Source: a virus. From it: DNA of 64,000 bases. The DNA lies in IMG/VR virus record IMGVR_UViG_3300046660_000488, positions 408,640 through 472,639 of that record; one strand, given 5' to 3'. Below the pieces are notes generated by a model. That model searched no databases. It was given only the letters and a program-made list of their open reading frames with translations, and was not told the DNA's origin. The translations under genes and the position numbers were made by a program. Shown here one piece after another: positions 4,680 to 63,866 of this stretch. The first letter of the stretch is position 1. Each line of letters opens with the position of its first letter.

Positions 4680-4694
4680 GATGCTTATCCTTCC

Positions 4695-16577: not shown

Positions 16578-16993
16578 TAGCGCCGCTCAAGAAGGTGGCG
16601 GTGAACTGCGATCACCCGGCGGGAGACCATCACCAAGGCTTCAGCCTCGGGGTCTTCTTCATCGGCGAAGTCGTCGAGGAACGCCAACAGGTTGGAGTCA
16701 GCCGTTGCCGCCACGATGTCCAGAGCGACATCCGGGCCGATCTTGAACCGGTAATCCTGAAGAATCTGGATGACGATGGGAAGAAAGGCGCCCGCCTCTT
16801 CGGCCAGATCACGCGCGAATACCAACCCGAAATAGTTGGTGAAGAACGACTTGCTGTCGTCGGGGATTTCCGTGAGCAGGTCAACAAGCACTTCGGCGCG
16901 ACGTTTGGCCTCTTCAGAGTCCATGATCTCCGTGATTTTGCGGTTTTGCTCGATGATTTCTTCGATACGAGAAGACTTGTTGTCGTCAGTCAT
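16577..16993 (-). CDS. hypothetical acidic protein
   Basis: The start was chosen at MTDDNKSSRIEEIIEQ. A GGAG SD lies 10 nt upstream. This ORF was preferred over the plus-strand ORF 16595..16999. Confidence 0.45.
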   Translation of the reverse strand: MTDDNKSSRIEEIIEQNRKITEIMDSEEAKRRAEVLVDLLTEIPDDSKSFFTNYFGLVFARDLAEEAGAFLPIVIQILQDYRFKIGPDVALDIVAATADSNLLAFLDDFADEEDPEAEALVMVSRRVIAVHRHLLERR

Positions 16994-24219: not shown

Positions 24220-24424
24220 TCCGGTCGCCGCCATCGACGATGTTCGAGGTCTTCGCGCCGAGCTTGCATCGGTCAAAGCCCAATTGAGGGAAGCGACCTA
24301 CGAGCCTCGGCGTCAGAAAATCGAAAGCGCCCGTGCCCTCCGGTTCCTTCGGGACGTCAAGGGTCACAAGTTGTCGCCTAGACAAGAAGAGATCATTGCT
24401 ATGTGGGCAGACGGTGAGCCCTAA
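24203..24424 (+). CDS. hypothetical small protein
   Basis: A 73-aa ORF. Confidence 0.3.
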   Translation: MYEWLDPVAAIDDVRGLRAELASVKAQLREATYEPRRQKIESARALRFLRDVKGHKLSPRQEEIIAMWADGEP

Positions 24425-24434
24425 ATAAGGGATC

Positions 24435-42490: not shown

Positions 42491-43351
42491 ATGAGAGTCG
42501 GAACAAGATCAGTCGCAGACATGTGGCAAACGTCTACTGGATATTTCCAAGTGGCCGCAGGGACAACTGCCCAGCGCCCGACGTCACCACGAAGCGGCAT
42601 GATGCGGTTCAACACCACGTTCCAGAACTATGAATACTACGCCAATGGCGCGTGGTTCCAGAGCCCCAACAACAAATACGACGGCGTCCGAGCGCCCACC
42701 GAGCAAGATTCGTCCGGCTTCGCAATCGGGAGCACATGGTTTTGGGGTGATCGTGTTTTCGTCTGCGTTGACGCGACCTCGGGCTCGGCTGACTGGATGG
42801 AAATTGCAACCGAAATGGACGTTCAGGCGGATCATCCGGGTGTCGCGATTGGTCGGTATTACGGGACTGCAACGGACGGCATGATGTCCACGTACACATT
42901 TTCGGACAGCGTTCTCTATGCGATTCCGTGTCAATTCCCGGCCGGTTACACGTTCAACCGGATCGGTGTTGAAACGATCTCTCGCCATACCGGATACAAC
43001 GTCCGCTTGGGAATCTACAGCAACGTGGACGGGTCGCCAAGTTCCCTGCTGCTCGACGCCGGTATCGTTTCGGCTTCGACGGTCGGTCTCAAGGAAATCG
43101 TCACCAATTTCACGACCGATGGCGACTGGTTCTGGCTGGTGTGCAATTTGCAGACCGACATGATCCTTCGGTCGATGAAATGCCCAAGCTGGGTCGCCGG
43201 TGGGGCGGTCCTCGGGCGGATGGTCAGCGGTGGTGATCCAGTCGTCCGGGTGTCGGCGACGCAAGCCTACGGCCCGCTCCCGTCCACGTTCCCGGCTTCG
43301 AAGACCGCTTCGGCCGACGACGCTCCCCAGCTTTGGCTTCGAAAGGTCTAA
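42491..43351 (+). CDS. tail fibre protein paralog (Phage_fiber_2 repeat plus a shared tip domain)
   Basis: The motif GYFQVAAGTTAQRPTSPRSGMMRFNTTFQNYEYYANGAW is present. The C-terminus LGIYSNVDGSPSSLLLDAGIV...PQLWLRKV is shared with the 41138 gene. Confidence 0.6.
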   Translation: MRVGTRSVADMWQTSTGYFQVAAGTTAQRPTSPRSGMMRFNTTFQNYEYYANGAWFQSPNNKYDGVRAPTEQDSSGFAIGSTWFWGDRVFVCVDATSGSADWMEIATEMDVQADHPGVAIGRYYGTATDGMMSTYTFSDSVLYAIPCQFPAGYTFNRIGVETISRHTGYNVRLGIYSNVDGSPSSLLLDAGIVSASTVGLKEIVTNFTTDGDWFWLVCNLQTDMILRSMKCPSWVAGGAVLGRMVSGGDPVVRVSATQAYGPLPSTFPASKTASADDAPQLWLRKV

Positions 43352-43791
43352 ACGCAGCGCGCGGTCGAGCGCAGCATCCAACGGTGTTTCTGGTGGGTCT
43401 CGATGCGCTCACCAAGGAAATTGGCCAGACCCTGTTGGTTCTCGTCGGTGGCCATCTGGAGCGCGACGGTCATCAGGTCGATCAACGTCTCGTGGGCTTC
43501 CATGAGGGCCAGCAGCACGCCTTGCAGGATGAACGGCTGCGGGTCGATCTCACCGACCATGCTCAGGGCGCTATAGGCCGACAGGGACGCAGGTGCCTTG
43601 GCGTCGAGCGCACGAAGCTGCTCGGCGTGGCGATCAAGTGCTTCCCACTGATCATCGTATTGATCCTTGAACATGCTGTGCAGGCCATAGAAATTCGGCC
43701 CCTCGACATTCCAGTGTGCACCATGGGTGGACAGGTAGACTGAGAAAGCGGTCGCGAGGACTTGCTGCATGATGGCGGTCAATTCTTCCAT
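43348..43791 (-). CDS. Dps-like ferritin / DNA-binding protein from starved cells
   Basis: The start was chosen at MEELTAIMQQ. LATAFSVYLSTHGAHWNVEGPNFYGLHSMFKDQYDDQWEALDRHAEQLRALDA matches the Dps ferroxidase-site pattern. A CACTAAATAC box lies immediately upstream on the minus strand. Confidence 0.6.
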   Translation of the reverse strand: MEELTAIMQQVLATAFSVYLSTHGAHWNVEGPNFYGLHSMFKDQYDDQWEALDRHAEQLRALDAKAPASLSAYSALSMVGEIDPQPFILQGVLLALMEAHETLIDLMTVALQMATDENQQGLANFLGERIETHQKHRWMLRSTARCV

Positions 43792-48392: not shown

Positions 48393-48459
48393 CATTCGTT
48401 CGAGGGTTCGAACCCCGGACCTCCGCTTCCGCGACGCTCTCCCACTGAGCTAAACGACC
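48393..48459 (-). tRNA. tRNA-like element (D-arm and T-arm canonical; anticodon region too short)
   Basis: On the minus strand: GGTCGTT-TA-GCTC-AGTGGGA-GAGC ... CGGGG-TTCGAAC-CCTCG-AACGAAT. Six of seven acceptor pairs form. Only 18 nt lie between the D-stem and T-stem, where about 22 are expected. Confidence 0.3.
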
Positions 48460-49357
48460 AACTCGCCATGCTATCCCCGGTTTGGTGGCCACCTCACCGA
48501 GGAATTCCTGTGGCCGTTCATCACGGCCGAATGTTCCGGCTACTGGGGGCTCTTTTTCACGAGTGGTCTAATCTCGCTACTAGACAGCCCTTTCCACCGT
48601 GGACGTTAGACCGAATGGGGACCAACCCATCCTTTTTCACGCCCGTCTTGCTTGCGGGTGGGACGCGACCCCCACTGTCTGCATTGCCAACCGGATGAAC
48701 CGGGCTCTCCGCAAATTCTGTTGCCGTTTCCGGCGAATGGCTGACACGGGCAATCCTACTTCCCACCGTCGCGGGTGTCGGATGCTCCTATGAAACCATG
48801 TCGGCCTCGAACCGATCCTCCCCCGATCAGGGGGCACACTACCCGTTGTGCTACAGCTTCCGTGTCCAAAGGGAGTCTATAGCCTCCCAGAGGTTGTTGC
48901 TCATGCGAGCGAATTTTGACCAGCGATTGACATCAGCAGCGCTACTTCAATCACGAACGAGGTGGGGGCGCCAGTCCCCACTTTCCCCAGTGTTTGCTGG
49001 GGTCTTATAAGCTGATAGATCACTCGTTCTACGCTTGGTCGTTCAGCAGTCGGCGCCGCTCAAGAGACAGCACCGTCGCCTACACTTGGATGCCCATGCG
49101 GGCAAATGGTTATGCGCGGGCGGATTTATACCACCGGCCTCCCCGTTGGAAACGGGCTCTCTCGCCCTCCGACCGTTTACTGACAGGTGCGTTTGCAACC
49201 GCGCCCTGCGTTCAACGTATCGAAGCCCAACGACGTCATGGTCACATCCGACTAACGGCGGGTAGTTTACCCCATGCCAGTTCGTTGCCTGAGCTACGCG
49301 CAACTTTGATGCCCATGCGGGCAAATTGGTACGCAGATGGGGTTTCCCGAGGAAACT

Positions 49358-49424
49358 ATACCGGTTGGATTCGAACCAACGCGCACGAGCAATGCTCGCT
49401 GCTCTCCCGCTGAGCTACGGCCCT
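49358..49424 (-). tRNA. tRNA-like element (canonical 5' half and T-arm; acceptor 3' strand mismatched)
   Basis: On the minus strand: AGGGCCG-TA-GCTC-AGCGGGA-GAGC ... GTTGG-TTCGAAT-CCAAC. The middle is CGAGC-ATT-GCTCG, a 3-nt loop rather than an anticodon loop. Confidence 0.3.
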
Positions 49425-52416: not shown

Positions 52417-52782
52417 ATGGAAATGACTGCGGTACGTTTCACCATGCGACGGATCGACTTCGCCCCCTTCCACGACTGGATGGACGAGCATTACCCCGGA
52501 TGGGCCTACCACGTTGACGTCGGGCCTCTCGACAAAAGCAAAGAGCGCAGCTACCGCGCCGTTCTGGTACAATGCGGTGTGATCGCCGCGCATCCTCGCT
52601 ACATCGACCGTGACCCGCCTCTGGGCGCGGGGATGTCGATCCTGATCCCCGCCGACATGCAGCCCAAGCCGATCACGGAACGATGGGCCTTGCCCGGCTA
52701 TGCGTACGCTTACAAGTGGATTCCGGACATGGGTTGGCGAACCGTGCCGGTGTCAATGCAACTGCCGCTGACCGATAGCTAA
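52417..52782 (+). CDS. hypothetical protein
   Basis: The start at MEMTAVRF has a GGAG SD 6 nt upstream. Confidence 0.4.
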   Translation: MEMTAVRFTMRRIDFAPFHDWMDEHYPGWAYHVDVGPLDKSKERSYRAVLVQCGVIAAHPRYIDRDPPLGAGMSILIPADMQPKPITERWALPGYAYAYKWIPDMGWRTVPVSMQLPLTDS

Positions 52783-53366
52783 GCCGCGATCATGTGCTTG
52801 ATGATCGAAGTGACCTGCATTTCGGTTTCTTCGAGCGTCCCGCCGGTGTCGATGATGAAGTCGGCCATCTTGCGCTTGTCCCGGTCGGGCATTTGCTTGG
52901 CCAAGATCGTCTCGAACACCGCTGCGGTCATGTTCGGTCGAGCAAGCACGCGAGCGCGCTGGACAGAAGCTGGCGCGCTCGCTACCACCACCTTCACGCC
53001 GTCGAGGAATTTCGGCTTGCTCTCGAAGTAGAGCGGGACGTCATAGACAATCATCGGGAAGTAGGTATGCTTGCGCGCGAAGGATTCGTAGCTTTCGGTG
53101 AGCAGCGGCCCGACGAATAGTTCAAGCGCCGTCATCTTCTCCTGATCGTCCAGAACGATGGCGCGCAATTTCTTGCGGTCCACGTGATCCCAGTCGTCCA
53201 GCACGTCGCCGAACATCGACTTGATCTCAAAGGCGTGTTCAGACGAGTAAATCTCGTGCACGGCCGCGTCCGAGCAATGGACGGGGATGCCGTACTGCCG
53301 GAACATTTCGGAGATCGTGGTCTTGCCCATGCCGATGGAACCGGTGAGGACGAGCTTGGTGGTCAT
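52779..53366 (-). CDS. coaE: dephospho-CoA kinase
   Basis: The start is MTTKLVLTGSIGMGKTT, a P-loop in the CoaE position. The 195-aa length and overall CoaE collinearity fit. Confidence 0.75.
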   Translation of the reverse strand: MTTKLVLTGSIGMGKTTISEMFRQYGIPVHCSDAAVHEIYSSEHAFEIKSMFGDVLDDWDHVDRKKLRAIVLDDQEKMTALELFVGPLLTESYESFARKHTYFPMIVYDVPLYFESKPKFLDGVKVVVASAPASVQRARVLARPNMTAAVFETILAKQMPDRDKRKMADFIIDTGGTLEETEMQVTSIIKHMIAA

Positions 53367-53427
53367 GGTGGGCCTCGTGATACACACCAGCCTACCTCCG
53401 CATTGGGAATTTCGTCAACCAGATTCG

Positions 53428-53435
53428 CTAAATAC
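53428..53435 (+). promoter_or_regulatory. late-promoter-like box CTAAATAC abutting the first effector-island operon
   Basis: The box ends 4 nt before ATG 53440. There is no SD, which implies a leaderless or near-leaderless transcript. Confidence 0.45.
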
Positions 53436-53439
53436 GCCC

Positions 53440-54081
53440 ATGCGTGATTTGATCAGCCTCATGGAAAACTACATCGCTGAATGGGGCGATGAAGACGAAG
53501 ATGATCTCGATGGCGAAGGCCATTGGGGAGACGACGATGAAGCGGAAGATGAGCACGATGATCCGACTGAATATCGGACCAACGGCTATGACTTCGGCCG
53601 TCTGGGAAATTTCTATCACCAAGTGGTGGCGGCGGCCGACAGCCAGATGGATTCCGGATCGGAGATCGAGTTTTCCGATGTCCAGAATTGGGTCGAACAT
53701 CACGCTGAACTCTTCCAGCAAGGTACGATCACCGTCTTCCGCACCATGCGGCTACAGCATGGCGTCGTCGAGGCGCTGAAGGCTGGCACGGAGCTTGGCT
53801 CGCACTGGACCTACGAATTTGACGAAAGCGCTCTCGATGCCTTCGACATCAATGGTCAGGACGGTGGAACACTCTACACCTTCGCCGCGACGATCCACAC
53901 CGGGCAGGTCGCCTTCCCGCTGACCGTCGCCTACAACTGCCTCTTCCCAGAAGAGAAAGAAATCTACCCGTTTGGCCATGCGTCGCTGACGCTCATCGGG
54001 ATTTACGAGACCGAAGACATGGAAAACCCGCAGCGGGTGAACCTGCGTCCCGATCTGGTCGGTAAGGAATTTCCAATCTGA
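53440..54081 (+). CDS. effector-island protein 1 (shared N-terminal peptide MRDLISLMEN; acidic linker; unknown domain)
   Basis: The N-terminus is MRDLISLMENY. An acidic stretch follows: DEDEDDLDGEGHWGDDDEAEDEHDD. Confidence 0.55.
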   Translation: MRDLISLMENYIAEWGDEDEDDLDGEGHWGDDDEAEDEHDDPTEYRTNGYDFGRLGNFYHQVVAAADSQMDSGSEIEFSDVQNWVEHHAELFQQGTITVFRTMRLQHGVVEALKAGTELGSHWTYEFDESALDAFDINGQDGGTLYTFAATIHTGQVAFPLTVAYNCLFPEEKEIYPFGHASLTLIGIYETEDMENPQRVNLRPDLVGKEFPI

Positions 54082-55292
54082 TGCGCGAGTTCATCCAAAT
54101 CCTTCGTGAATCCTACCTCACCGATCAGATCAAGCTGGACGACAAGCTTGTCGCCGCCGTCAAGGCGCGCTTGATGAAGGGATCGTTCTACGATTACGAC
54201 ATGCCCTCGGATGAAAGCGAGTTTTTCGACGACGTCGAGGCCGCTTATCACAAGGTGCTCTGGAACACGCTGTTCAAGGACAATGCGGTAACGATCTATC
54301 GCGCCGAGCTTCGGCCGCGCGGTCGCAACTTCGGGTCCGTTGGCATCTATTGGTCGTTCCGCCCGGAAGGGGCTCAGGCGATCTATGGGCACGACCATGG
54401 CCCGGAAATCCACGGCGGCGCGGCACTGCGCGAAATCGTGTTCATGGCGTCGGCGCCGATCACGTCGGTCGATTGGATCGCCACGTTCGCGGCCAACATC
54501 GCCATGCCGAAAGAGCTTGAAATCACGCTCAAGAACAACGCGCCGTTGACCTTGGAGCAAGCGGTCGTCGGCAACCGTAAGACCACGCTGAACATCAAGT
54601 CGTTCGCCAGCAACATCACGCAGTACGACATGATGGAGACGCCGGTCAACGAAGTCGAGATCGGTGGTGGCGTCGAAGTTTCGGACCTCGACGACGATCC
54701 GGGCCACGACTACACGAACAAGCAACGCGATCTCTTCCGCGACACCCCGGCCGGTGAGCCGGAGCTTCCGCAGGGCTACAAGCTGGTCAACCGCGTCGGT
54801 GATTTCTGGGTCGCGCAGTGCCTGAAGAACATGGACCAGCACAGTGTCATGTACGTGTTCATCAAGGATGGCGCGGAGAATGCGGCTGGCTACATCGCCG
54901 CCCATAAGTGGCACATCGACAAGCTGAACTATCGTCACGAAAACATCTACCAGCCCATGTTGGGTGGCAAGGGTCTTCGGGTCGGCGCGGTGTACGTGCG
55001 CGAGCAGTATCGTGGCTCTGACCTGTCCTTGGTGATGTACAAGTGGATGCTGGAGAACGTCTGCGATTACCTGATGGCCGACAGCTTGCAGACCATGGGC
55101 GGCGTCAAGATTTGGAAGAAACTCCAAAGCCGCAAGCCGTTCCACGTCGAGGTCTGGAATGGCAATCAGGACACGACCCGCAAGCACCGTCGCGGCAAAG
55201 ACTTCGACCGCGTCTACGACAACGGCTACATGATCCCTTGGGTCACCATCGACAGCAAGTTGGACATCGTCCACTCCGATCCGTACGAGTAA
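54081..55292 (+). CDS. effector-island protein 2 (N-terminus MREFIQILRE; C-terminal GNAT acetyltransferase)
   Basis: The C-terminus VGAVYVREQYRGSDLSLVMYKWMLENV is GNAT-like. The ATG overlaps the upstream stop (TGATG). Confidence 0.55.
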   Translation: MREFIQILRESYLTDQIKLDDKLVAAVKARLMKGSFYDYDMPSDESEFFDDVEAAYHKVLWNTLFKDNAVTIYRAELRPRGRNFGSVGIYWSFRPEGAQAIYGHDHGPEIHGGAALREIVFMASAPITSVDWIATFAANIAMPKELEITLKNNAPLTLEQAVVGNRKTTLNIKSFASNITQYDMMETPVNEVEIGGGVEVSDLDDDPGHDYTNKQRDLFRDTPAGEPELPQGYKLVNRVGDFWVAQCLKNMDQHSVMYVFIKDGAENAAGYIAAHKWHIDKLNYRHENIYQPMLGGKGLRVGAVYVREQYRGSDLSLVMYKWMLENVCDYLMADSLQTMGGVKIWKKLQSRKPFHVEVWNGNQDTTRKHRRGKDFDRVYDNGYMIPWVTIDSKLDIVHSDPYE

Positions 55293-55299
55293 TGCAACC

Positions 55300-55758
55300 A
55301 TGGACATCCGCACCGCCATCAACCTGTTTGAACACGCGCCACCGCCGCCAGTCCGCAAGCACCTGCTGGCGGCCATCGCCCATGCGGACATCTACGGTGA
55401 TGCGAAATGGAAGCTAAGCCAGTTCGATCTGAAATACGTCGGGTTCCTGTCGGTCGAAGAGATCGCTCATTATGACGACGTGCATGGATGGATGGACGTT
55501 CAACAACCAAGTGATTTGGCCAATTTCCGTGACGGCGATTTCTATTTCCCTCCGGGCGAGCGCATGCCGCCTGTCATCCTGATTACGGCACCGGATGGTG
55601 AGGCAGATAGTTCGTCGCGCTTGCACAACGGCAAGGTCGCAGGCGGCTGCATGACGCAGATTGGCGATGGTCGCGGACGCATCAACTACGCTAACGCGCA
55701 CAAAGAACGCCTTCACGTCTATCACATGATCTTCAAAGGCTGCGGAGAACAAGTTTAG
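55300..55758 (+). CDS. effector-island protein 3 (N-terminus MDIRTAINLFEH)
   Basis: A 152-aa ORF in the same operon. Confidence 0.45.
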   Translation: MDIRTAINLFEHAPPPPVRKHLLAAIAHADIYGDAKWKLSQFDLKYVGFLSVEEIAHYDDVHGWMDVQQPSDLANFRDGDFYFPPGERMPPVILITAPDGEADSSSRLHNGKVAGGCMTQIGDGRGRINYANAHKERLHVYHMIFKGCGEQV

Positions 55759-55775
55759 ATTCGAGCGCTGTAGTA

Positions 55776-55807
55776 CATTGACATGCAGACCGCAGTGTGT
55801 ATGCTCT
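55776..55807 (+). promoter_or_regulatory. sigma70-like promoter TTGACA-N16-TATGCT
   Basis: ttgacatgcagaccgcagtgtgtatgctc lies directly upstream of ATG 55813. Confidence 0.35.
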
Positions 55808-55812
55808 GCACC

Positions 55813-56742
55813 ATGGACACCAGCATCTTCACGTCGATCAACGCCTGTGAACGGATCGCCGCACGGACGATACGCAACCTTGCCATATCCAGAACCCATC
55901 CGAGCGTCAGCCTGCTCGACGTTCTGAAGCCATCGTTTCACCGCATCTACGCCGCTGGCAAGCTCACCCGCGATGAACTCGCGGCCGTGACGCGCAAGGT
56001 CCGCGACAAGCTCAATCAGAGCGAAGCGGTGGTCAAGAACACGCTGATCATCGGCAACAAGCTCAGCACCCGCGACATGAACGAGGGGCAGATCGTCTGC
56101 CTGCAAGGCGCGGGCGAACAGTGGCTGGAAATGTGGGGCGTCGGCGTGATGATGTCGCGCAAGCGCATCGTCGTGTTCTCGGCGCCAGCCGAATTCAAAG
56201 TGCACCGCCACGCGCTCACCCGCTACATGGGCGGCGAGCTTCAGTATCCCGAGCACCTTGCCGCGAAACTGCTGGACGCGGCTCAACTGTCGATCCCGAT
56301 CATGGCGGCCATCCTCGCCCACCGGACGGACGACAACCTCGCCATTCCGGTCGGCGACGGCATGCTGTTTGGCAAGATCAAGCTCTTCGACGGCTACGGC
56401 GAATTCATGACCGTCCGCACGGGCCAGAACGGCGTGGGCATGGTCCCGCGTCGGCGTTCGGGGATGCTGAAGGACAGTACGACCGAAGCCAACATGATGA
56501 CCTATGTGGACGCCGACCGGATGGTCGAGTCTCGCGTTGAACTGCATGGCCTGCTCAGCGAGTTTGCCGCCAAGCACCACCGCATCTGCGCGGCGATCTT
56601 CGAGGACTGTGTGTTCGAGACGAACCGCCCCTACCAGAAAGCCATCATCGACGAATTGCAGGAGGATGCCCGCAAGCTGGTGACCAGTCCGACGTGGTCA
56701 CAGTTCGCGGGCACGGCCAACCGGGTCACCACCAGCGCTTAG
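55813..56742 (+). CDS. hypothetical protein
   Basis: The start at MDTSIFTSIN lies within track ORF 55783..56742. Confidence 0.45.
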   Translation: MDTSIFTSINACERIAARTIRNLAISRTHPSVSLLDVLKPSFHRIYAAGKLTRDELAAVTRKVRDKLNQSEAVVKNTLIIGNKLSTRDMNEGQIVCLQGAGEQWLEMWGVGVMMSRKRIVVFSAPAEFKVHRHALTRYMGGELQYPEHLAAKLLDAAQLSIPIMAAILAHRTDDNLAIPVGDGMLFGKIKLFDGYGEFMTVRTGQNGVGMVPRRRSGMLKDSTTEANMMTYVDADRMVESRVELHGLLSEFAAKHHRICAAIFEDCVFETNRPYQKAIIDELQEDARKLVTSPTWSQFAGTANRVTTSA

Positions 56743-56911
56743 GCGCTGGCTTGACCCACGGCTTGTCGCTCTTCCACGTGTGCTTGTTCAGGGTGTCGTC
56801 TTCGGGACGCCGTCCACCGATGGCCTTGGCCAGTTTCTTGAGGTTGTCGCCTCGCGCTTCGGCGTAATAGGTGTGGGACTTGACCCACAGTTCGCAGTAG
56901 AAACCACGCAT
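56726..56911 (-). CDS. hypothetical small basic protein
   Basis: A 61-aa ORF. A CCTAAATAGAGCCATGCG box lies about 90 nt upstream on the minus strand. Confidence 0.35.
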   Translation of the reverse strand: MRGFYCELWVKSHTYYAEARGDNLKKLAKAIGGRRPEDDTLNKHTWKSDKPWVKPAPKRWW

Positions 56912-57040
56912 AGTCTTTCTCCATAGCTCCGCACCGCACTGATTTGCGGTTTCAACGGAGTCATAGGAGAGGGAGTTATGGTGCTTGACGCATGGCTCTA
57001 TTTAGGATGTGGGCGCCATTGCTGACGCCCACACGGCCCA

Positions 57041-57976
57041 TTATTTCAGAGGGTAGACGCGGACGTAGTCCACGGTCATGGCCGCCGGGTAGACGCCCTT
57101 GGCCGGGTCACCGGCCGTGATGTCGCTCACCGCGACGTTCATCAGCAGGTACATCGGCTTGTCGTAGGCGAACGGCGTGCGATAGACCTCGACGTTGTTG
57201 ATGTAGAACACCAGTTCAGTCGGGGTCCACAGGACGCCGTAGGTGTTGAAGTTGGTCGTCGCCGTGGGCACGGTCGGCTGAGGCTTGGGCGACAGGGCTG
57301 TCTCGTTGCCGGTGACGCCGACGTGCACGGTGATGTTGTCCACGTTGGTGCGGTTCAGCGGCACGCCCTTCATGACCTGAATGGTCTTGTGCGGCCCGGC
57401 ATAGTGTTCGAGCACATCGATCTCCGGCAGGCGCCCGCCATTGGTCGCGGTCTTCTCGACCGGGAGCAGCCAGAACGCCGCCCACGTGCCGTCAGCCTTC
57501 GGCATCACCGCGCGCCATTCCCAGTAGCCGTAGGTCTGGGTGAAGCTGCGCTGGGTGGTCAGCAGGCCGCTGATGAAGTTGCGCGAGCCTTGGCCGCACG
57601 TTTTCTTCACGTAATCGGTGGCGCGGATGACGTTGATGCTCAGGTTGCCGTTGCCCTGATAGAAGACGTTCTGCCCGCAGTACTCGGTGTCCACGTAGAC
57701 CTGTTGCTCGCCGGTCAGGGCGCGCGACGAGAACTGTTCGGTCATGGTCAGCGGGCGGCTGGCCTTCTCACGCTGGTTGCCGAAGTAATAGTCGGTCTTC
57801 CAGACGCCCTTCGGGTTCTTTGTGCTCAGCGTGTCCAGCGGCGTGCCGTTTGGGGCGTTGAACTCAGCAGCAAAGGTTGGGGTCGGATTGAGGATCGAGC
57901 GATCCAGTGTGGCAGACATGGCTGGCGTACAAAGCATCAGAGCAATGGCCGCCGAAATGGCTTTCAAAAATTTCAT
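57041..57976 (-). CDS. secreted glycoside hydrolase family 16 (beta-glucanase/laminarinase-like)
   Basis: The signal peptide is MKFLKAISAAIALMLCTPAMSA. The GH16 catalytic motif LPEIDVLEH (ExDxxE) is present. Confidence 0.7.
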   Translation of the reverse strand: MKFLKAISAAIALMLCTPAMSATLDRSILNPTPTFAAEFNAPNGTPLDTLSTKNPKGVWKTDYYFGNQREKASRPLTMTEQFSSRALTGEQQVYVDTEYCGQNVFYQGNGNLSINVIRATDYVKKTCGQGSRNFISGLLTTQRSFTQTYGYWEWRAVMPKADGTWAAFWLLPVEKTATNGGRLPEIDVLEHYAGPHKTIQVMKGVPLNRTNVDNITVHVGVTGNETALSPKPQPTVPTATTNFNTYGVLWTPTELVFYINNVEVYRTPFAYDKPMYLLMNVAVSDITAGDPAKGVYPAAMTVDYVRVYPLK

Positions 57977-57977
57977 G

Positions 57978-58062
57978 ATATATTGGCTCCAAAAATTCAA
58001 GCCAATAGTAGTACAGTATTTACTATACTGTCAACATGAACGTTTACAGTTGTCAACGGTCG
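57978..58062 (-). promoter_or_regulatory. AT-rich promoter region for the GH16 gene (TTGACA-N18-TACTAT plus an embedded GTAAATAC box)
   Basis: On the minus strand: TTGACAgtatagtaaatactgtacTACTAT...GGAGCCaatatatcATG. The composition is strongly AT-shifted compared with the genome. Confidence 0.4.
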
Positions 58063-58254
58063 CTATCCATTGATGACGCGGACGTACACGGCTCGAAGAC
58101 GTCCGCTGGAGGTCATCTTTACGCGGAAAGTCACCACCTGTCCTTCGGAGTAGCACTTGCCTTTGCCGATGAGAAAAATGGGTCCGCCACCATCGGACGG
58201 GGTGATCATCCCGAAACCGCGAGAGTCTTTGAACCACTTGATTTGCCCGAACAT
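58063..58254 (-). CDS. cold-shock protein (CspA family)
   Basis: MFGQIKWFKDSRGFGMITPSDGGGPIF carries the RNP1-like KGFGFI motif. Confidence 0.65.
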   Translation of the reverse strand: MFGQIKWFKDSRGFGMITPSDGGGPIFLIGKGKCYSEGQVVTFRVKMTSSGRLRAVYVRVING

Positions 58255-58316
58255 GCGCGGGCCGGGGAGCGTAGGGGTCATCCCATCAGCCTACCAAATC
58301 TGGTAAACGAAACCCA

Positions 58317-58324
58317 CTAAATAC
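58317..58324 (+). promoter_or_regulatory. late-promoter-like box CTAAATAC
   Basis: The box ends 4 nt before ATG 58329. Confidence 0.45.
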
Positions 58325-58328
58325 GGAC

Positions 58329-58694
58329 ATGCGTTGGAACGAGATCATCACCGAAAGTGAAGTGCCGTGGGTCGATAATGCGACCAACACGTTGAGCGTC
58401 GGATCGACGACGCTGGAATTTGACCTGTATCGCAACGACGTGCAGATCAAAGACCTCGACACGCCGGTCGCCGACCGTGGTCAGGGCCAAGCACGCAAGG
58501 CCATGCTGATGCTGGCCGCCAAAGCCGATCAGGTCGGTGCCAAGATTTCGCTGCTGTCCTACCCGCAGGATGAAGTCACAAAGCAGGGACAGTTGAACAA
58601 ATTCTATCGCTCGCTTGGCTATAAGGCCATCCGCAAGTACCCGGACGGCGACGTGCTGATGGTTCGTCAGCCGAAAACGCCAAAAGGCGCTTGA
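58329..58694 (+). CDS. effector-island protein 4 (N-terminus MRWNEIITES; small GNAT acetyltransferase)
   Basis: VADRGQGQARKAMLMLAAKADQVGAKISLL...KFYRSLGYK. Confidence 0.55.
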   Translation: MRWNEIITESEVPWVDNATNTLSVGSTTLEFDLYRNDVQIKDLDTPVADRGQGQARKAMLMLAAKADQVGAKISLLSYPQDEVTKQGQLNKFYRSLGYKAIRKYPDGDVLMVRQPKTPKGA

Positions 58695-59002
58695 CACTCA
58701 GGCCGCGTATGGTAGTGTGCGTTTCTCACTGAAGTAGGTGAGCGGACTGCTCCACCTCGGTGGAGAACATGCACCATTAACCGCCGCCTCGTCGCCGGAA
58801 GAATGATCGGTAGTTCCTTTGGGCTATGCCTCACGGCAACGATCTTTGGAAGGTTTGGACAAGACGAGGCTGTAGTGACGCTGCGAAAGCAGAGAGTAGC
58901 CGCACCAAACCCGGCTAGGCGGGACGTCATATCGTGACATCGGAAGGCTGTCTGATCCAGAGGTCAGACGGCGCGGTCCACAAGCTGAACACGACAGCAG
59001 GA

Positions 59003-59031
59003 AGGGCGGGGAGCAATCTCCGCCTTTTTTC
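59003..59031 (+). terminator. rho-independent terminator ending a roughly 330-nt non-coding stretch
   Basis: GGCGG-ggagcaatct-CCGCC followed by TTTTTTCTATTT. Confidence 0.45.
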
Positions 59032-59464
59032 TATTTGGCTGTCTTCTGTAGAGTGCGCGCATGAGCCAGACCGCCACACCTCCGTCTGAATACCTGCCCA
59101 GAACCGCCGTGGAAGCGCTCGTGCGCGCCAATGCGAATGGACACACGCCGGAGCGCGCTCAAGGCGCCGAGCACTGGCGGTGCAGCACCTGCGGCTATGT
59201 CGCCTCGCAAGTTCGCTGGTGGCCGATCACTTGCGAGGCCACGTCCACGTCCTCCGCGTGAAATAATGGAAGAACGGTCGGTCGAAGGCGATGTTCACCA
59301 AGCCTTTGCCCAGAATTTTCAACAGCAGCCACCGCGTGTCGAGTGACATGCGGCCGGTAAATGGTTTTCCGAAGGCGATGCAACGAACGCTGTGAAAGAT
59401 CACGCGCCATTCGTTCTTACTGATAGCTCTCATCAGCAACCTGTGCTGTATCAAGAGCAAACCG

Positions 59465-59746
59465 TCAAGAGTCGATAGCCCACCAAATCGCTTCGTCGGA
59501 CTCGCGATCCTCGACCGTGGGGTCATCGTGGAAGCCGATGATGTTCTTCTGCTTCATGCGCGTCGGGAAATAGACGCAGCCGCACGACGAGCAGATGTTC
59601 GCATCGGTGATCACCGGGATGATGTCGGGTGCGACTTCCGCAATTTCGGAAAGCTGAGAGTGGTGGATTTTGGCCTGACGGTTCAACGTCGGGCGCTCGC
59701 AGTTACGATTAGGGCAGGGCTTGTTCTGCTTCGAGCGGTGGGCCAT
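59465..59746 (-). CDS. hypothetical Cys-rich protein
   Basis: A 93-aa ORF with CPNRNCE...CSSCGC. Confidence 0.35.
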   Translation of the reverse strand: MAHRSKQNKPCPNRNCERPTLNRQAKIHHSQLSEIAEVAPDIIPVITDANICSSCGCVYFPTRMKQKNIIGFHDDPTVEDRESDEAIWWAIDS

Positions 59747-59761
59747 GATCGTATTTATGGA

Positions 59762-59769
59762 CTAAATAT
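59762..59769 (+). promoter_or_regulatory. late-promoter-like box CTAAATAT
   Basis: The box ends 4 nt before ATG 59774. Confidence 0.45.
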
Positions 59770-59773
59770 TGCC

Positions 59774-60640
59774 ATGCGCGAGTACATCAACATCGTAGAA
59801 TCCAACACCTATCCCATCAAGGGTGGAACGGTTCAGGTCGTGACCCGAGAACTGCGGGGCAATCGCTACAGCTTCACGGCCACGGTCGATGGACAGCGAG
59901 CCGCCATCGGTGAATTCCAAGCGCAAGACTCGATGAATGGCGACAAGGGATCGGTGGAAGAGATCACTGTCGCTGCGGCGTTCCGGCGCCGTGGGATCGC
60001 CTCGGCGATCTACAGCCATTTCGAGAAGATGGGCTTCACCGTTGTTCCATCCGATGATGTCCGGCCGGATGGCCAAGCGTTTTGGAAGAGCCGTCCGCTG
60101 ACGGAGTTGTCGCGGCCGGTCTTCATAGATGAAGTCGATCCGATCTTGAAGAAAGCCGGGTGGACCCGCGTCGGCTCTGGCTACTATGCCTCCGTCTACG
60201 CCAAGGAAGGCGTGAACTACGTCCTCAAGCTGTTCAGCAATCACGACAAAGGCTACATCGATTTCCTGAAGCTTGTTCAGCAGCATCCGAACAAGCACTT
60301 CCCCACGCTCCGTGGCCTGCCGCGTCGGATCACGTCGGGATACACGGCGGTCCGCATGGAGAAACTTCTGCCAGCCGGTTATGGTGACGACGTGCCAAGC
60401 CTTGGCGTCTACCTGCTCTGCCGCGACACCGGTCCCTATGCCAAGAACCAGTATCAGGTGAAGGCCTACGAGCACGTGGTGGAATATCTCCAGAGCCAGC
60501 CGGAACTGAAACGCGCCCTCGACTTGATCATCGACAATCTGCTTCCCAAATACAACGAAGACCTGCACAGTGAGAATTTCATGAAGCGCGCTGACGGAAC
60601 GCTGGTCATCATCGACCCGGTCGGTTTCGTTCGGAAATAG
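59774..60640 (+). CDS. effector-island protein 5 (N-terminus MREYINIVES; GNAT acetyltransferase fused to a protein-kinase-like/aminoglycoside-phosphotransferase-like domain)
   Basis: The GNAT part is EEITVAAAFRRRGIASAIYSHFEKMGF. The kinase-like part has a G-loop WTRVGSGYYASVYAKEG, a Lys in VLKLF, and a catalytic-loop-like LHSENFMKRADGTLVIIDPVGF. Confidence 0.55.
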   Translation: MREYINIVESNTYPIKGGTVQVVTRELRGNRYSFTATVDGQRAAIGEFQAQDSMNGDKGSVEEITVAAAFRRRGIASAIYSHFEKMGFTVVPSDDVRPDGQAFWKSRPLTELSRPVFIDEVDPILKKAGWTRVGSGYYASVYAKEGVNYVLKLFSNHDKGYIDFLKLVQQHPNKHFPTLRGLPRRITSGYTAVRMEKLLPAGYGDDVPSLGVYLLCRDTGPYAKNQYQVKAYEHVVEYLQSQPELKRALDLIIDNLLPKYNEDLHSENFMKRADGTLVIIDPVGFVRK

Positions 60641-60679
60641 GCAGGTTGACCGGTCGAGGCTATGTGGTAAACCAACGCC

Positions 60680-60940
60680 ATGCAGCTTTCGTTTGATGAA
60701 TGGTGCGGCTCTGTCCGCGACAGGTTCGAGAAGACGTTCGGGTACACCGCCCCGAGGTCGCCATCGCTTGTCGAACTGGACAGCCGGGTGCAGGAACGGA
60801 TCATGCGCTGTGGCGTCGAGGCCCATCGTTTCGGCCTTGAGCATTACGACGAAATGGCTGTGCTCGCGCACCACACGCTGATCCTCGAAGACGTCAAGGC
60901 CGGAATGTCGAACAGCCATATGCGGTACGTGGCGCCTTAG
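60680..60940 (+). CDS. hypothetical small protein
   Basis: An 86-aa ORF. Confidence 0.35.
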   Translation: MQLSFDEWCGSVRDRFEKTFGYTAPRSPSLVELDSRVQERIMRCGVEAHRFGLEHYDEMAVLAHHTLILEDVKAGMSNSHMRYVAP

Positions 60941-61422
60941 ATTGTCGCCGGGATATTTGTGGCGATGGTCTTGTCCGTCTCGATGTCATAGAACCGGGCG
61001 ATTACAACCCGTGAACCGGGGCGAAGCGTGATCTCTTGATCGCTATCCCACCATCCAATGGCGCGCGCCATCGTTTCCGGCCAGTTGATAGCCGCCTGCG
61101 GAACGGTAACTTGCATCACGTAGTCGCCGTAATGGACGTCGGCATTTGTCTCGGGTGCAATGGCCCAGTGGATGCCGAGTTTGTTGCGATTGACGCTCGT
61201 CGTCGGCAGTCGCCGATAGAGGGTGACGTTCCCTTCGGACCACGGTTTCAATGCGGCTGACAATTCTTGTGTCCGGCCGACCATCCACTCGTCGAAGTCG
61301 TCAAACGCAAGTTTGTAGTTGTGGTAGAGACCACGAAGATCACCGGGGCCATAGCGGAAAGCATTGAGCACGGTATCCGGCGTAACGTCGGCCAAACTCT
61401 CGTTGATCTCATTGTATCGCAT
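60937..61422 (-). CDS. effector-island protein 6 on the minus strand (N-terminus MRYNEINESL)
   Basis: The start at 61422 lies immediately after GCTAAATATGGG on the minus strand, which matches the same box arrangement. Confidence 0.5.
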   Translation of the reverse strand: MRYNEINESLADVTPDTVLNAFRYGPGDLRGLYHNYKLAFDDFDEWMVGRTQELSAALKPWSEGNVTLYRRLPTTSVNRNKLGIHWAIAPETNADVHYGDYVMQVTVPQAAINWPETMARAIGWWDSDQEITLRPGSRVVIARFYDIETDKTIATNIPATI

Positions 61423-61459
61423 CCCATATTTAGCTGTTTGAGCGTGATGTTCCTGAAGC

Positions 61460-61467
61460 CTAAATAC
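61460..61467 (+). promoter_or_regulatory. late-promoter-like box CTAAATAC
   Basis: The box ends 4 nt before ATG 61472. The divergent minus-strand box lies at 61426..61433. Confidence 0.45.
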
Positions 61468-61471
61468 TGCC

Positions 61472-61888
61472 ATGCGCGAATTCATCAATCTCCTAGTCGA
61501 AGCCCAAATGTACCTCGGTGACAAGGGTACGACTTACTGGAACCATGCTGGCAAGTACGAAGCCGAAATGGGCAAGCTTTGGAAGGAACTGGTTCCCGGT
61601 TCCGGCCCGGCCGAAACACTCGCTGGCGAAGTGCTGCGCTGTGTCTCCAAAATCTACTACCGCCATTTCAATGACGGCGATTCGTTCACCGTGGACAGCT
61701 TCGCGTTCCTGAAGAAGAACATCGGCCATTTCACGACGTACGACGAAATGGTTGACCGTGCGGTCGAATTCGCGATGGACCCTGAGCACCAAGCCATGGC
61801 CAACAACTTCGACAGCGTGCGCGAACTCAAAATCTACGAAGGTCCCGAGTCAGGTTACGACGACGACGAGGATGAAGACGAGTACTGA
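61472..61888 (+). CDS. effector-island protein 7 (N-terminus MREFINLLVE; acidic C-terminal tail)
   Basis: A 138-aa ORF with C-terminus DDDEDEDEY. Confidence 0.5.
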   Translation: MREFINLLVEAQMYLGDKGTTYWNHAGKYEAEMGKLWKELVPGSGPAETLAGEVLRCVSKIYYRHFNDGDSFTVDSFAFLKKNIGHFTTYDEMVDRAVEFAMDPEHQAMANNFDSVRELKIYEGPESGYDDDEDEDEY

Positions 61889-61891
61889 TCC

Positions 61892-62551
61892 GTGCGCGAA
61901 TTCATCACCCTCATCGAGAGCGGCACAGCCGCTGAAGCATTTGACGACTGGTTCGGCAACAGCCGTGTGGTTGATGGTGACGGTCGGCCGCTGATCGTCT
62001 TCCACGGCACGAACCAACCGTTCGAGCAGTTCTCCAAGGCGCGCGGCGGCATGGCCACTGGCCCGCAGGCTGGTGCCATCCACGGGTTCTTCTTCACGAG
62101 CACCGAAGCGGAAGCTTGGGATTATGCCAAGCACGCCGGGAGCAAGGTCGTATCCGGTATCGACCATTTCGAGCAGGAGACGGAACGTCTGCGTTTGGAG
62201 CAGGAACGTCTTGAAAAGCTTGCCCAGCGCACGAACAAGAAATCGGACTGGGATGCGTTCTATGCCGCCTACCAGAATTGGGAAGATTTCGAGATAAATG
62301 CCACGCGCGAGGAAGACGATGTCGGCAACCGCGTCGTCAAGGCCTACCTGTCGCTCCAGAACCCTCTGGAGGTCAATTTCAACGGCACGATGCAGTCTGA
62401 GGCTGGCGTCATCCAAGACGTGGTCGAGAAGGCCGTACGCGACGGCAATGACGGCGTGATCATGCGGAACATCTACGACGGCCCGTATGGCGGCCACACG
62501 AGCGACCACTTCGTCGCGTTCTCACCCGATCAGATTCATCAGGTTGGCTGA
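61892..62551 (+). CDS. effector-island protein 8 (N-terminus V/MREFITLIES; H-Y-E class ADP-ribosyltransferase-like)
   Basis: The GTG start overlaps the upstream stop. RPLIVFHGTNQPFEQFS...GFFFTSTEAEAW matches the [FY]HGT motif of diphtheria-toxin/PARP-like ARTs. Confidence 0.5.
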   Translation: MREFITLIESGTAAEAFDDWFGNSRVVDGDGRPLIVFHGTNQPFEQFSKARGGMATGPQAGAIHGFFFTSTEAEAWDYAKHAGSKVVSGIDHFEQETERLRLEQERLEKLAQRTNKKSDWDAFYAAYQNWEDFEINATREEDDVGNRVVKAYLSLQNPLEVNFNGTMQSEAGVIQDVVEKAVRDGNDGVIMRNIYDGPYGGHTSDHFVAFSPDQIHQVG

Positions 62552-63420
62552 TGCGCTATCGCGAACTCATCGAGGCGGCAAGCGACGAGCCACCGTTCAA
62601 GAAACCCAAGGGCGTTCGCACACCGGCCTTCACCAAGGACGGGCGCCGCATCATCCTGTCGAAAGGTTACATGAGCGTCGATGCCATGATCGACGGCAAG
62701 CCTGCCGGGAACATGCAGATCAGCAGCCCGAGCGACGGCGGACTAGGCTACAGCAATCGGTTCTACGTCAACCGGGTGTGGGTCGAGGAAGAATTCCGTG
62801 GACAAGGCGTGGCCACGGCCATGTACGATTTCGCCTTCCGAGCCGGTTTCAGGCCACTGGGAATGAGCCGCACGCTCACCGACCAAGGTAAGGCGTTCTG
62901 GGACGACCACGTTCGCAAGAAGGCGTCCAAAGGTCTCGGCCGCGACTATCACAGCGATTATCCGAACCGGTTCCACTGGCGACCGTTGCCGATGTCTGAA
63001 GACATCATCAGCGAAGGCAAGGTTCATCAACTGGATACGGGCTACGGTGGAAACGTGCGAATGACGCTCATCTACCAGAATCCGTCTCCCGTTCAAGCAC
63101 AGACAATGGCCAAGAACCAGATGGACCGGTACAACGGCCTTCTGTACCTTCGTGGGATCATGTCCAACGGATCGACGGTCTATGTCGCCGATGGCTGGGC
63201 CTGCACCCATGACGATCTGATGCAGAATTTCTTCCCCGGCAAGAGTGAGAGCGACGAGCGCTTCACGACGTTCGAGATCGCCAACTATGCGGGCGGCAGT
63301 TACGGCGCCGACAGGACCACGTTCCCAGCGAAGGTCGGCGTGGTCAAAGCGGGACATTTCGACGTCGAAACGAACCCGCAGATCGCGAAGATCATCGCCG
63401 GATGCCGGGCGGTCAACTAG
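62551..63420 (+). CDS. effector-island protein 9 (N-terminus MRYRELIEAA; N-terminal GNAT acetyltransferase)
   Basis: VWVEEEFRGQGVATAMYDFAFRAGFRPLG. Confidence 0.5.
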   Translation: MRYRELIEAASDEPPFKKPKGVRTPAFTKDGRRIILSKGYMSVDAMIDGKPAGNMQISSPSDGGLGYSNRFYVNRVWVEEEFRGQGVATAMYDFAFRAGFRPLGMSRTLTDQGKAFWDDHVRKKASKGLGRDYHSDYPNRFHWRPLPMSEDIISEGKVHQLDTGYGGNVRMTLIYQNPSPVQAQTMAKNQMDRYNGLLYLRGIMSNGSTVYVADGWACTHDDLMQNFFPGKSESDERFTTFEIANYAGGSYGADRTTFPAKVGVVKAGHFDVETNPQIAKIIAGCRAVN

Positions 63421-63866
63421 GTCCGGCCGATGGTCAGATGGAAGTGCCGCTTTTCGGGCGGAAGGCCGTAGCGCTCTCGCACGGCCGCAAGTTCGTCGGA
63501 CTCCACGTTAAGCCACCAATGCGCGCCATTCGTATAGATGTCGTGCGTGTACTTGATCGCAATTTCCTCGCCATCGTCCGCACCCCAGAGCGCCGGTGTT
63601 GAAAGCGTCTCGCCGCGAATGACCGACACGTGCGCGCCCCACTTCGAGCGGTGGTGCAGGCCGATCCCAAACCGCACGCGGATCATGTCGGCATAGTACC
63701 GGGCGATCTCGTCATCGACCTGAAGCAGCAACCAGTCGTCGGCGTAGCGCAGCGTTCCCACGACGTCATGTACATACGCGGCATTCTCCCGGTCACGGTA
63801 GGTCGTGATCAGTCGTCCGAATTTGCTCCCAAGGATATGGGTTCCGTGGATGGTGTTTACGAACAT
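63417..63866 (-). CDS. 2H phosphoesterase superfamily protein (LigT / cyclic phosphodiesterase-like)
   Basis: Two H-x-[ST]-x motifs are present: GAHVSVIRG and RHFHLTIGR. Confidence 0.55.
   Translation of the reverse strand: MFVNTIHGTHILGSKFGRLITTYRDRENAAYVHDVVGTLRYADDWLLLQVDDEIARYYADMIRVRFGIGLHHRSKWGAHVSVIRGETLSTPALWGADDGEEIAIKYTHDIYTNGAHWWLNVESDELAAVRERYGLPPEKRHFHLTIGRT

Follow-up and report, generated by a model that had tools for sequence, protein, structure and literature searches.

The internal proteins (IPs) of bacteriophage T4 carry a 10-residue capsid-targeting sequence, MKTYQEFIAE (PMC8442874), in which targeting to the prohead core depends on residues 4 and 7, and cleavage by the gp21 protease on residues 8 and 10 (PMC9026906). 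A propeptide that is similarly short is found on Alt, an ADP-ribosyltransferase that T4 injects. For the polyvalent proteins of phages and conjugative elements, injection together with the DNA is predicted (PMC5512222; PMC7824862), and phages are known to direct GNAT acetyltransferases at host proteins (PMC7824862). Phage proteins injected with the DNA act before phage gene expression and are thus prime candidates for anti-defence and host takeover, and they are hard to spot from sequence. Here we analysed a viral DNA stretch of 64,000 nucleotides (nt), positions 408,640 to 472,639 of IMG/VR record IMGVR_UViG_3300046660_000488 (this whole stretch is called the window below). Toward its end lies an island of genes that share a short N-terminal leader and a T4-type late-promoter box. 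We propose, with a probability of roughly 0.6, that this island is an arsenal of late, capsid-packaged, protease-processed and injected effectors, which would represent a variant of the T4 IP/Alt principle equipped with a polyvalent repertoire. No description of such a leader-tagged late effector island was found in the literature searched.

The leader and the late-promoter box

Inspection of the gene starts revealed an 8–11-residue leader shared by nine complete genes of the window and by a tenth that is cut by the window end (Table 1). For the part beyond the window we used a source contig of 67,411 nt from run SRR26076590, which matches the window; on this contig the leader is found on 13 genes over about 19 kb. 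It takes the forms M-R-x-(F/Y)-I-x-(L/I)-x-E, M-R-Y-x-E-I-x-E and M-D-I-R-x-x-I-x-L-x-E, and the three examples beyond the window read MRAHEIFE, MDIRNSISLIE and MRYSQIVNE. [LIV]-x-E closes every one of the 13 leaders, at residues 8–11, and a small or polar residue follows; the leader pattern is absent from the other genes of window and contig (0 of 61). The codons of the leader vary synonymously (CGT/CGC/CGA and GAA/GAG), so that what is conserved is the peptide. Furthermore, three genes inside operons (54081, 61892 and 62551; genes are named by their lower coordinate in the window) keep the peptide without a promoter box of their own, so that the leader is not a mere by-product of the promoter.

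By sequence comparison the leader is a module rather than part of a fold. Among the small homologs of 54081, clustered at 50% identity, 34 of 66 carry it by a strict pattern, before the N-terminal-domain family and the GNAT family alike. In Pseudomonas phage Lu11 the 58329 homolog bears another leader, MKIQLAVA. In Ralstonia phage RP13 the homolog of 61472 lacks a leader, and in Pseudoalteromonas phage vB_Psh_XG4 (L053, 2576–3654) it bears an I-I-E-ended one, MMILFDIIES, as does the adjacent gene, both starting MMILFDIIESSN. In Lu11 itself (L001, 153.4–165.8 kb) at least eight consecutive genes start with MKIQLAVA or MKIQLATA, including one with a weak ART-PolyVal match. This run appears to be an analogous leader-tagged island, whose tag differs and lacks the L-x-E end. 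For the leader we also considered a signal for Sec/Tat or for import into a phage nucleus, as well as an N-degron or Clp tag, and set these aside: it lacks a hydrophobic core, the phage does not resemble phiKZ, and the constant [LIV]-x-E end fits a protease site better.

The sequence CTAAATA is found 16 times in the window, where 0.86 occurrences are expected. Ahead of the tail sheath, TerL and other structural genes it comes with ordinary 24–65-nt leaders, whereas in six transcription units of the island within the window, and in more beyond the window end, it stands exactly 4–5 nt before the ATG. The box is of the T4 late-promoter class, which has a −10-like box and no −35 element: the T4 sequence at −10 is TATAAATA, and phage CBB, which like Atu_ph07 belongs to the Rak2-like group, uses ATAAATA. 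Since a −10-like element sits about 6–7 nt upstream of the start site, a box 4–5 nt before the ATG predicts that the late mRNAs of the boxed island genes are leaderless, starting at or next to the A of the ATG. Outside the island, a Dps/ferritin-like gene without the leader peptide (43348–43791, minus strand; PF00210, 82 bits) also has CTAAATA exactly 5 nt ahead of its ATG and is apparently a leaderless late gene. The minus-strand stump at 56976–57005, in which the box and the first leader codons are followed by a stop, is probably the remnant of a lost leader gene and hints at gene turnover in the island. Together, the promoter in this remnant and the differing cargoes suggest gene shuffling.

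Leaders of the same types recur in the head modules of related phages. N-termini of the same kind are found in T4, where core and vertex proteins of the head module start MEGLIE (gp67), MNEPQLLIE (gp21), MLKEQLIAE (gp22) and MAKINELLRES (gp24), the last having LRE/S in common with 54081 (slash, end of leader). In Agrobacterium phage Atu_ph07, gp204 is an S77 (gp21-type) protease, all of whose 7,999 database relatives (7,999/7,999) carry PF03420; the genes flanking the portal and protease genes start MKLTELFNPLTES (gp199), MDFRQIRALLEG (gp205) and MSIRKFLNIINES (gp206), and the scaffold homolog starts METGFEKLLEG. The virion mass-spectrometry table of Atu_ph07 contains gp199, gp204, gp205 (10 peptides, 43.6% coverage) and gp206 (PMC6102473 supplement). 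On a Phosso-like contig, which also has a PF03420 protease, we found MRYNEFSKES behind the portal gene and MRAHELFES behind the protease gene, as well as MRIKEIVES and a scaffold protein starting MNQGLKELLES. Thus, in relatives, leader-like N-termini go with head assembly, and in one case their link to the virion is experimental. The variant leader of 55300, which recurs on a second gene of the contig (MDIRNSISLIES), resembles that of the virion-proven Atu_ph07 gp205.

These comparisons also bear on the possibility that the leader is not a capsid signal at all, the genes encoding late cytoplasmic enzymes whose common start is a translation or stability element of leaderless mRNAs, or an inherited N-terminal helix. 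Leaderless mRNAs may well constrain their first codons, and the box abuts the ATG in eight genes of the contig and in five of a metagenomic contig, L005. Yet the conservation lies at the level of the peptide despite synonymous codon changes, and in this phage, as in the head modules of relatives, the leader is borne also by genes that have ordinary Shine-Dalgarno spacing or are translationally coupled. It is moreover joined to unrelated folds, is swapped for other leaders in other phages, and always ends in the protease motif [LIV]-x-E. Given these features, we regard a leader that is no capsid signal as unlikely.

The leader-tagged type of late gene appears to be widespread in megaphages. The only database relative of the 62551 GNAT (P0001) starts MRYREIISED and lies on L005, a 4.4-kb contig on which five genes combine [GT]ATAAATA and 4–5 nt with MR..I..E. 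Scanning IMG/VR for TAAATA, 4–5 nt and codons for M-R-Y-x-E-(I/M) gave 64 loci, many on contigs of 400–608 kb and six on a single contig of 516,805 nt. Among the 48 distinct proteins, Glu is found at residue 8 or 9 in 41 and I/L/V/F at residue 7 in 35, neither being required by the pattern; in 58 of 66 matches an A or C precedes the box. A control scan with a one-base shift of the box yielded a single new locus; this control overlaps the true box and is informative only through that locus. Leader-box genes elsewhere are scattered, at 1–3 per 10 kb, and the present window is unusually dense. A search of IMG/VR for related loci with 54081 and 61892 found none. The first promoter-plus-leader DNA pattern had given two matches in IMG/VR, both by chance, and a pattern of this type returned 40 loci from JGI metagenomes, mostly of an unrelated marine family (MRDFIGLDYG...) or short spurious open reading frames; only L015, L026, L034 and L039 appeared relevant. 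Two of these (L015, 556–1104; L034, 2135–2680) have the late box 5 nt ahead of the ATG and the leaders MRELIEILKE and MRDLITLTE, and by eye their N-terminal regions resemble Fe/Mn superoxide dismutase. We tentatively suggest, at somewhat less than even odds, that Atu_ph07/Rak2-like jumbo phages and megaphages generally use the box, the 4–5 nt and about ten leader codons as a portable 'inject me' cassette; whatever open reading frame follows would then be transcribed late into a leaderless mRNA, and its product taken into the prohead, cut by the S77 protease and carried to the next host.

Cargo of the island and its proposed route

A sequence-only reading of this region had listed five GNATs, in the genes at 24435, 54081, 58329, 59774 and 62551. 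Profile searches and modelling place the GNAT domain on solid ground in three of them, and make it probable in 58329 and in 24435, the latter lying 28 kb outside the region for which it had been counted. Against Acetyltransf_1, with a gathering score of 20.7, 62551–63420 reaches 28.7 bits and 59774–60640 is just over the threshold at 21.8 bits. For 54081–55292 there is no direct Pfam match to GNAT. An exhaustive homolog search resolved this protein into two domains, of which the C-terminal half is a divergent GNAT: 18 of the 24 members of its family match Acetyltransf_1, and an AlphaFold model of this half on the family alignment reached a pLDDT of 86.8 (34 for the single sequence of 54081). 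The top 50 PDB matches of the model in Foldseek are all GNATs, with probabilities up to 1.0 and modest TM-scores of 0.3–0.46. The product of 58329–58694 has a weak Acetyltransf_7 match (E 0.11), a tblastn match (E 1e-5) to a gene annotated as GNAT in phage HRDY3, and 31% identity to Lu11 gp210 (E 5e-19). That of 24435–25514 matches Acetyltransf_7 weakly (E 0.004) and phrog_29287 with E 2.5e-44. Searches of PDB sequences with 54081, 24435 and 58329 were uninformative. The acetyl-CoA-binding motif A (Q/R-x-x-G-x-G/A) is canonical in 24435 (YRGFGLG), 62551 (RGQGVA), 58329 (RGQGQA) and 59774 (RRRGIA), and deviates in 54081 (QYRGSD). With three solid and two probable members, the idea that several acetyltransferases plausibly serve host takeover or anti-defence is supported.

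The acetyltransferases have company. The product of 61892–62551 matches the polyvalent-type ADP-ribosyltransferase family ART-PolyVal (PF18760) with 66.2 bits against a gathering score of 31.2, and a second, weak copy lies beyond the window end (contig position 71196–71777, minus strand). Residues 119–286 of 59774 match the protein kinase family phrog_15752 (E 6e-11). A 2H phosphoesterase without leader, 63417–63866, matches PF22547 with E 1.6e-5 and 25.6 bits, just under the gathering score of 27. In the structural block, a NUDIX hydrolase (21745–22290) with a leader-like start is a possible further packaged enzyme. Profile searches found no family for 55783–56742. The sequence-only picture of GNATs next to a CoA enzyme was thus largely right as far as it went, and overlooked the leader, the promoter boxes and the non-GNAT enzymes (the ADP-ribosyltransferase of 61892, the kinase of 59774 and the 2H phosphoesterase of 63417). 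As an explanation of the GNATs we prefer an island of putatively capsid-targeted effectors in which they are one of several kinds of cargo.

An uncharacterised domain is common to 53440–54081, the N-terminal half of 54081 (54081–54635) and 60937–61422 (minus strand). Its consensus reads v-x-RAELRP ... G-x-x-WSW ... IDWP ... P-x-E-x-EIT, with R, G and W invariant and ELRP, W, A-N and E-x-E near-invariant; the domain has no match in Pfam and no sequence match in PDB. The pattern [YW]R ... WS ... ExE loosely recalls R-S-E ADP-ribosyltransferases, which is only a guess. The same domain also occurs inside proteins of 1.4–2.4 kaa (thousand amino acids) together with GNAT, ART-PolyVal, 2H phosphoesterase and NUDIX domains. 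Two domains each are found in 59774 (GNAT and kinase), 54081 (uncharacterised domain and GNAT) and 62551 (GNAT and an unassigned domain), and the other island genes encode single domains; polyvalent proteins combine several (2–15) disparate effector domains in one chain, and their domain repertoire matches that of the island. Because its domains occur fused in giant polyvalent proteins, the island looks like an unbundled polyvalent protein, each piece with its own delivery tag.

These findings enable us to propose a putative route for the island proteins. Each gene or short operon is preceded by a T4-type late-promoter box, from which transcripts would start at or next to the start codon, and the proteins begin with an 8–11-residue leader that ends in [LIV]-x-E. 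By analogy with T4 IPI–III, Alt, gp67, gp21, gp22 and gp24, the leader would dock each protein in the scaffolding core of the prohead. As in T4, an S77 (gp21-type) prohead protease would then cut after the Glu, and the mature enzyme would stay in the head. Finally, the enzymes would be ejected with the DNA and hit host proteins, nucleic acids or nucleotide signals before phage gene expression, the GNATs acetylating, the gp0.7-like kinase phosphorylating and ART-PolyVal ADP-ribosylating their targets. Spanning about 45 bp, the unit of promoter and leader may serve as a portable cassette that confers late expression and capsid delivery on any open reading frame behind it, and it would offer microhomology for gene shuffling. 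Entry into the prohead and cleavage seem to us somewhat more probable than the proposal as a whole, and ejection into the host less so.

Several points weigh against this route. The window contains no head or protease gene, and an S77 protease is attributed to this phage from its relatives; this phage was not among the matches of the protease search, and a candidate, P0158, was rejected as belonging to an unrelated megaphage of 37% G+C. The cargo has no sequence homology to T4 IPs or Alt, the Pfam and PHROG scans giving ART-PolyVal, GNAT and kinase instead. T4 IPs are basic, whereas most island proteins are acidic to neutral, with isoelectric points of 4.1–9.1. The 5 nt after the box are G+C-rich here, whereas T4 late promoters are A+T-rich in their downstream part. 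The leader-pattern statistics (13 of 13 against 0 of 61) are partly circular, the pattern having been derived from the members themselves. Packaging, cleavage, ejection and transcription starts of this phage are read from its genes and from analogy. Taken together, the island resembles the T4 IP/Alt class in its presumed working and is not, by sequence, a member of that class.

A further point of this kind concerns the fate of the proteins. T4 gp67, gp68 and gp22 have such N-termini, are parts of the scaffold and are degraded rather than injected, so the leader argues for prohead entry and cleavage more than for ejection. The island proteins could likewise be targeted to the prohead and cleaved, and then act in assembly or inside the capsid, or be degraded. 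That T4 scaffold-core proteins have the same kind of N-terminus, and that the leader-type genes of relatives best supported as encoding virion proteins sit in the head module, would fit such a fate; the cargoes, however, are typical of host-directed effectors (ART-PolyVal, gp0.7-like kinase, GNATs) and of polyvalent proteins predicted to be injected, and in T4 the ADP-ribosyltransferase Alt, which has such a propeptide, is an injected protein. Head proteins that never leave the capsid or are degraded are therefore quite unlikely in our view, and we favour injected effectors.

Table 1. Features of the window (aa, amino acids; HMM, hidden Markov model; slash, end of leader)
Position	Strand	Feature	Start or leader	Match or remark
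21745–22290	+	NUDIX hydrolase, structural block	MMDMRDLFE/S (leader-like)	
24421–25514	+	Probable GNAT, 359 aa, tail/packaging block	No leader; late-promoter box ahead	Acetyltransf_7, phrog_29287
52779–53366	−	CoaE, predicted dephospho-CoA kinase, 195 aa	No leader, no late-promoter box	PF01121, TIGR00152; adjoins island, outside leader set
53428–53434	+	Late-promoter box CTAAATA		5 nt ahead of ATG of 53440
53440–54081	+	Leader gene, 213 aa; acidic linker, then uncharacterised 'RAELRP...W...ExE' domain	MRDLISLME/N	Family HMM 32.2 bits, E 7e-11
54081–55292	+	Leader gene, 403 aa; N-half uncharacterised domain, C-half divergent GNAT	MREFIQILRE/S	
55300–55758	+	Variant-leader gene, 152 aa, unassigned cargo	MDIRTAINLFE/H	
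55783–56742	+	319-aa gene, last in same plus-strand run	No leader	
56999–57005	−	Late-promoter box CTAAATA, then 5 nt and ATGCG, 5 codons, stop		CTAAATAgagccATGCGTCAAGCACCATAA (56976–57005)
58317–58323	+	Late-promoter box		5 nt ahead of ATG of 58329
58329–58694	+	Leader gene, 121 aa, small probable GNAT	MRWNEIITE/S	
59762–59768	+	Late-promoter box		5 nt ahead of ATG of 59774
59774–60640	+	Leader gene, 288 aa, GNAT fused to T7 gp0.7-like protein kinase	MREYINIVE/S	
60937–61422	−	Leader gene, 161 aa, paralog of uncharacterised domain	MRYNEINE/S	HMM 27.7 bits, E 2e-9
61427–61433	−	Late-promoter box		4 nt ahead of ATG at 61422
61460–61466	+	Late-promoter box		5 nt ahead of ATG of 61472
61472–61888	+	Leader gene, 138 aa; cargo conserved in many phages	MREFINLLVE/A	
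61892–62551	+	Leader gene, 219 aa, polyvalent-type ADP-ribosyltransferase	MREFITLIE/S, GTG start	PF18760
62551–63420	+	Leader gene, 289 aa, GNAT and unassigned C-terminal domain	MRYRELIE/A	
63417–63866	−	2H phosphoesterase ('Swiss Army Knife' type)	No leader	PF22547
63887–64000	+	Late-promoter box, then leader gene cut at window end	MRDLINIME/D	172 aa on contig

The dephospho-CoA kinase and the source phage

The sequence-only reading had placed a dephospho-CoA kinase, CoaE, at the edge of the region, and this assignment was borne out. The protein matches Pfam PF01121 with 101.8 bits (E 5e-29) and, over its full length, the NCBIfam equivalog TIGR00152 with 104.1 bits, above the cut-off of 65.55; as in bacterial CoaE, the P-loop (G9–K15) and the Asp aligned to E. 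coli D33, the catalytic residue, are invariant in the alignment. By sequence it is a genuine dephospho-CoA kinase, and the putative enzyme differs from bacterial CoaE in being phage-encoded, which is very rare. Its presence in a phage is as unusual as had been supposed: tblastn found matches in 10 of 50,697 phage records, namely short Listeria-labelled fragments, two uncultured huge phages and two faecal contigs, none of them a related jumbo phage. The nearest relatives are ordinary cellular CoaE proteins of Hyphomicrobiales, at 46–51% identity, which fits a host-derived auxiliary gene.

It had further been suggested that CoaE raises the supply of CoA and acetyl-CoA for the many GNATs, making the region a CoA-acetylation module. 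The gene is genuine and rare, lies less than 100 bp from the first island gene, and GNATs use acetyl-CoA; this proposal is nevertheless not supported. CoaE is a lone minus-strand gene between plus-strand genes and has neither late box nor leader; it therefore shares neither transcript nor regulation with the GNATs. Its sequence is of the cellular type, and CoaE was not found in Lu11 or Atu_ph07 in a search of the phage database, nor on L005, of which 4.4 kb are available, although all three have leader-tagged GNAT or ART genes. In the island, non-GNAT enzymes are as many as GNATs. Pantothenate kinase, not CoaE, controls the flux of CoA synthesis, and injected GNATs would act before any phage gene expression, which counts against a phage CoaE boosting their CoA. 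Beyond adjacency, nothing connects CoaE functionally to the GNATs, and we judge the supply model improbable. CoaE is best described as what appears to be a rare host-derived auxiliary metabolic gene at the island edge, separate from the leader set. The appealing but unsupported story of CoaE feeding the GNATs is thereby corrected, and a rare phage coaE is flagged. Since dephospho-CoA capping of A-initiated RNA is known, CoaE might also be imagined to lower the dephospho-CoA pool and spare A-initiated late mRNAs a 5′ cap that would block leaderless translation, but the circumstantial fit with abundant predicted +1A leaderless transcripts, an adjoining rare CoaE and NUDIX genes is outweighed by a CoaE that is not late-regulated and by relatives that have the same promoter-ATG arrangement without CoaE, leaving this idea with hardly any probability.

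The source is a giant T4-related myovirus, a megaphage. A CoaE identical to that of the window sits on a JGI contig of 578,292 nt, from which the genome is probably about 0.58 Mb. The window encodes a 978-aa tail sheath, a tail tube, TerL, a gp32-type single-stranded-DNA-binding protein and a UvsX recombinase. TerL shares 57% identity with its counterpart in Sinorhizobium phage Phosso (469 kb), 56% with that in Atu_ph07 (490 kb) and 49% with that in the PA5oct group. A DNA-level search of the phage collection with the region gave no match, and protein-level searches with its genes found almost no relatives in isolate phages. The host is probably alphaproteobacterial, of the Hyphomicrobiales, given the two-piece transfer-messenger RNA gene and the affinity of CoaE to those of Methylobacterium, Microvirga and Ancylobacter. 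The former, a permuted gene of alphaproteobacterial type and unusual phage cargo, lies at 7763–8099 on the minus strand (RF01849, 114 bits; RF04321, 121.7 bits).

Other features of the window were also recorded. A glycoside hydrolase family 16 protein with a signal-peptide-like N-terminus is encoded in the middle of the island on the opposite strand (57041–58000, minus), behind a sigma-70-like promoter, TTGACA-18-TACTAT, at 58034–58005, and a cold-shock-domain protein (58063–58281, minus) adjoins it. The 425-aa product of 8550–9827 (minus) matches phrog_16140 (E 8.5e-145) and, weakly, the histidyl-tRNA synthetase family. The segment 47000–50400 is poor in open reading frames; it has tRNA-like matches at 48393–48459 (minus) and 49361–49420 (minus), and ARAGORN made an odd call at 48791–48860 (minus), with the anticodon undetermined. 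In an unrelated megaphage (L010, a 572-kb JGI contig of 37% G+C; 4341–8105 and 15064–16655), an intein interrupts the portal gene and an IS605-type TnpA/TnpB pair adjoins the major capsid gene.

Comparison with known delivery systems

Should the proposal be true, the shared leader would be a simple computational handle for injected effectors in the largest known phages, and hundreds of them, including the RAELRP...W...ExE family, could be read directly from metagenomes. It would also be a naturally occurring tag with which foreign proteins could be loaded into these capsids, as is done with the capsid-targeting sequence in T4.

The T4 proteins IPI, IPII, IPIII and Alt are like the island proteins in their leader of about 10 residues ending in [LI]-x-E, in late expression (predicted here) and in being encoded by variable genes of hyperplastic regions. 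An ADP-ribosyltransferase is among the cargo in both, and the proposed route from prohead core through cleavage to ejection is the same. The island differs in its leader consensus, MR-x-F/Y-I-x-L-x-E, and in having at least 13 clustered genes against four in T4. GNATs and a kinase belong to its cargo, which is largely enzymatic and mostly acidic; the promoter directly abuts the ATG, and packaging and ejection are predicted. The ejection and inner-body proteins of phiKZ, 201phi2-1 and SPN3US are likewise packaged in the head, and their propeptides are removed after Glu by a protease related to T4 gp21. They belong to another lineage, however, with longer propeptides, multiple cleavage sites and another motif context, and form mostly non-enzymatic paralog families.

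In cargo, the island is reminiscent of the polyvalent proteins (Iyer et al. 2017, PMC5512222), which share with it ART-PolyVal, GNAT, Kinase-PolyVal-like, 2H phosphoesterase and NUDIX domains and are predicted effectors delivered with the DNA. In the island these domains are split into one- and two-domain genes with their own leaders, in place of a MuF or portal fusion as packaging handle. If the proposal is true, polyvalent proteins and leader-tagged single-domain arrays would be two solutions to one delivery problem. The T7 gp0.7 kinase and the phiKMV Rac acetyltransferase are host-takeover enzymes as well, and the island kinase domain is related to gp0.7 (phrog_15752). Theirs are early and unpackaged, whereas the island kinase is fused to a GNAT, bears a leader and is predicted to be late. 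Finally, the PeSL cassettes of T4-type hyperplastic regions (PMC2839356) resemble the promoter-plus-leader unit as short repeated regulatory sequences at gene boundaries and possible substrates for recombination; PeSLs combine early promoters with stem-loops, and the unit described here combines a late promoter with leader codons.

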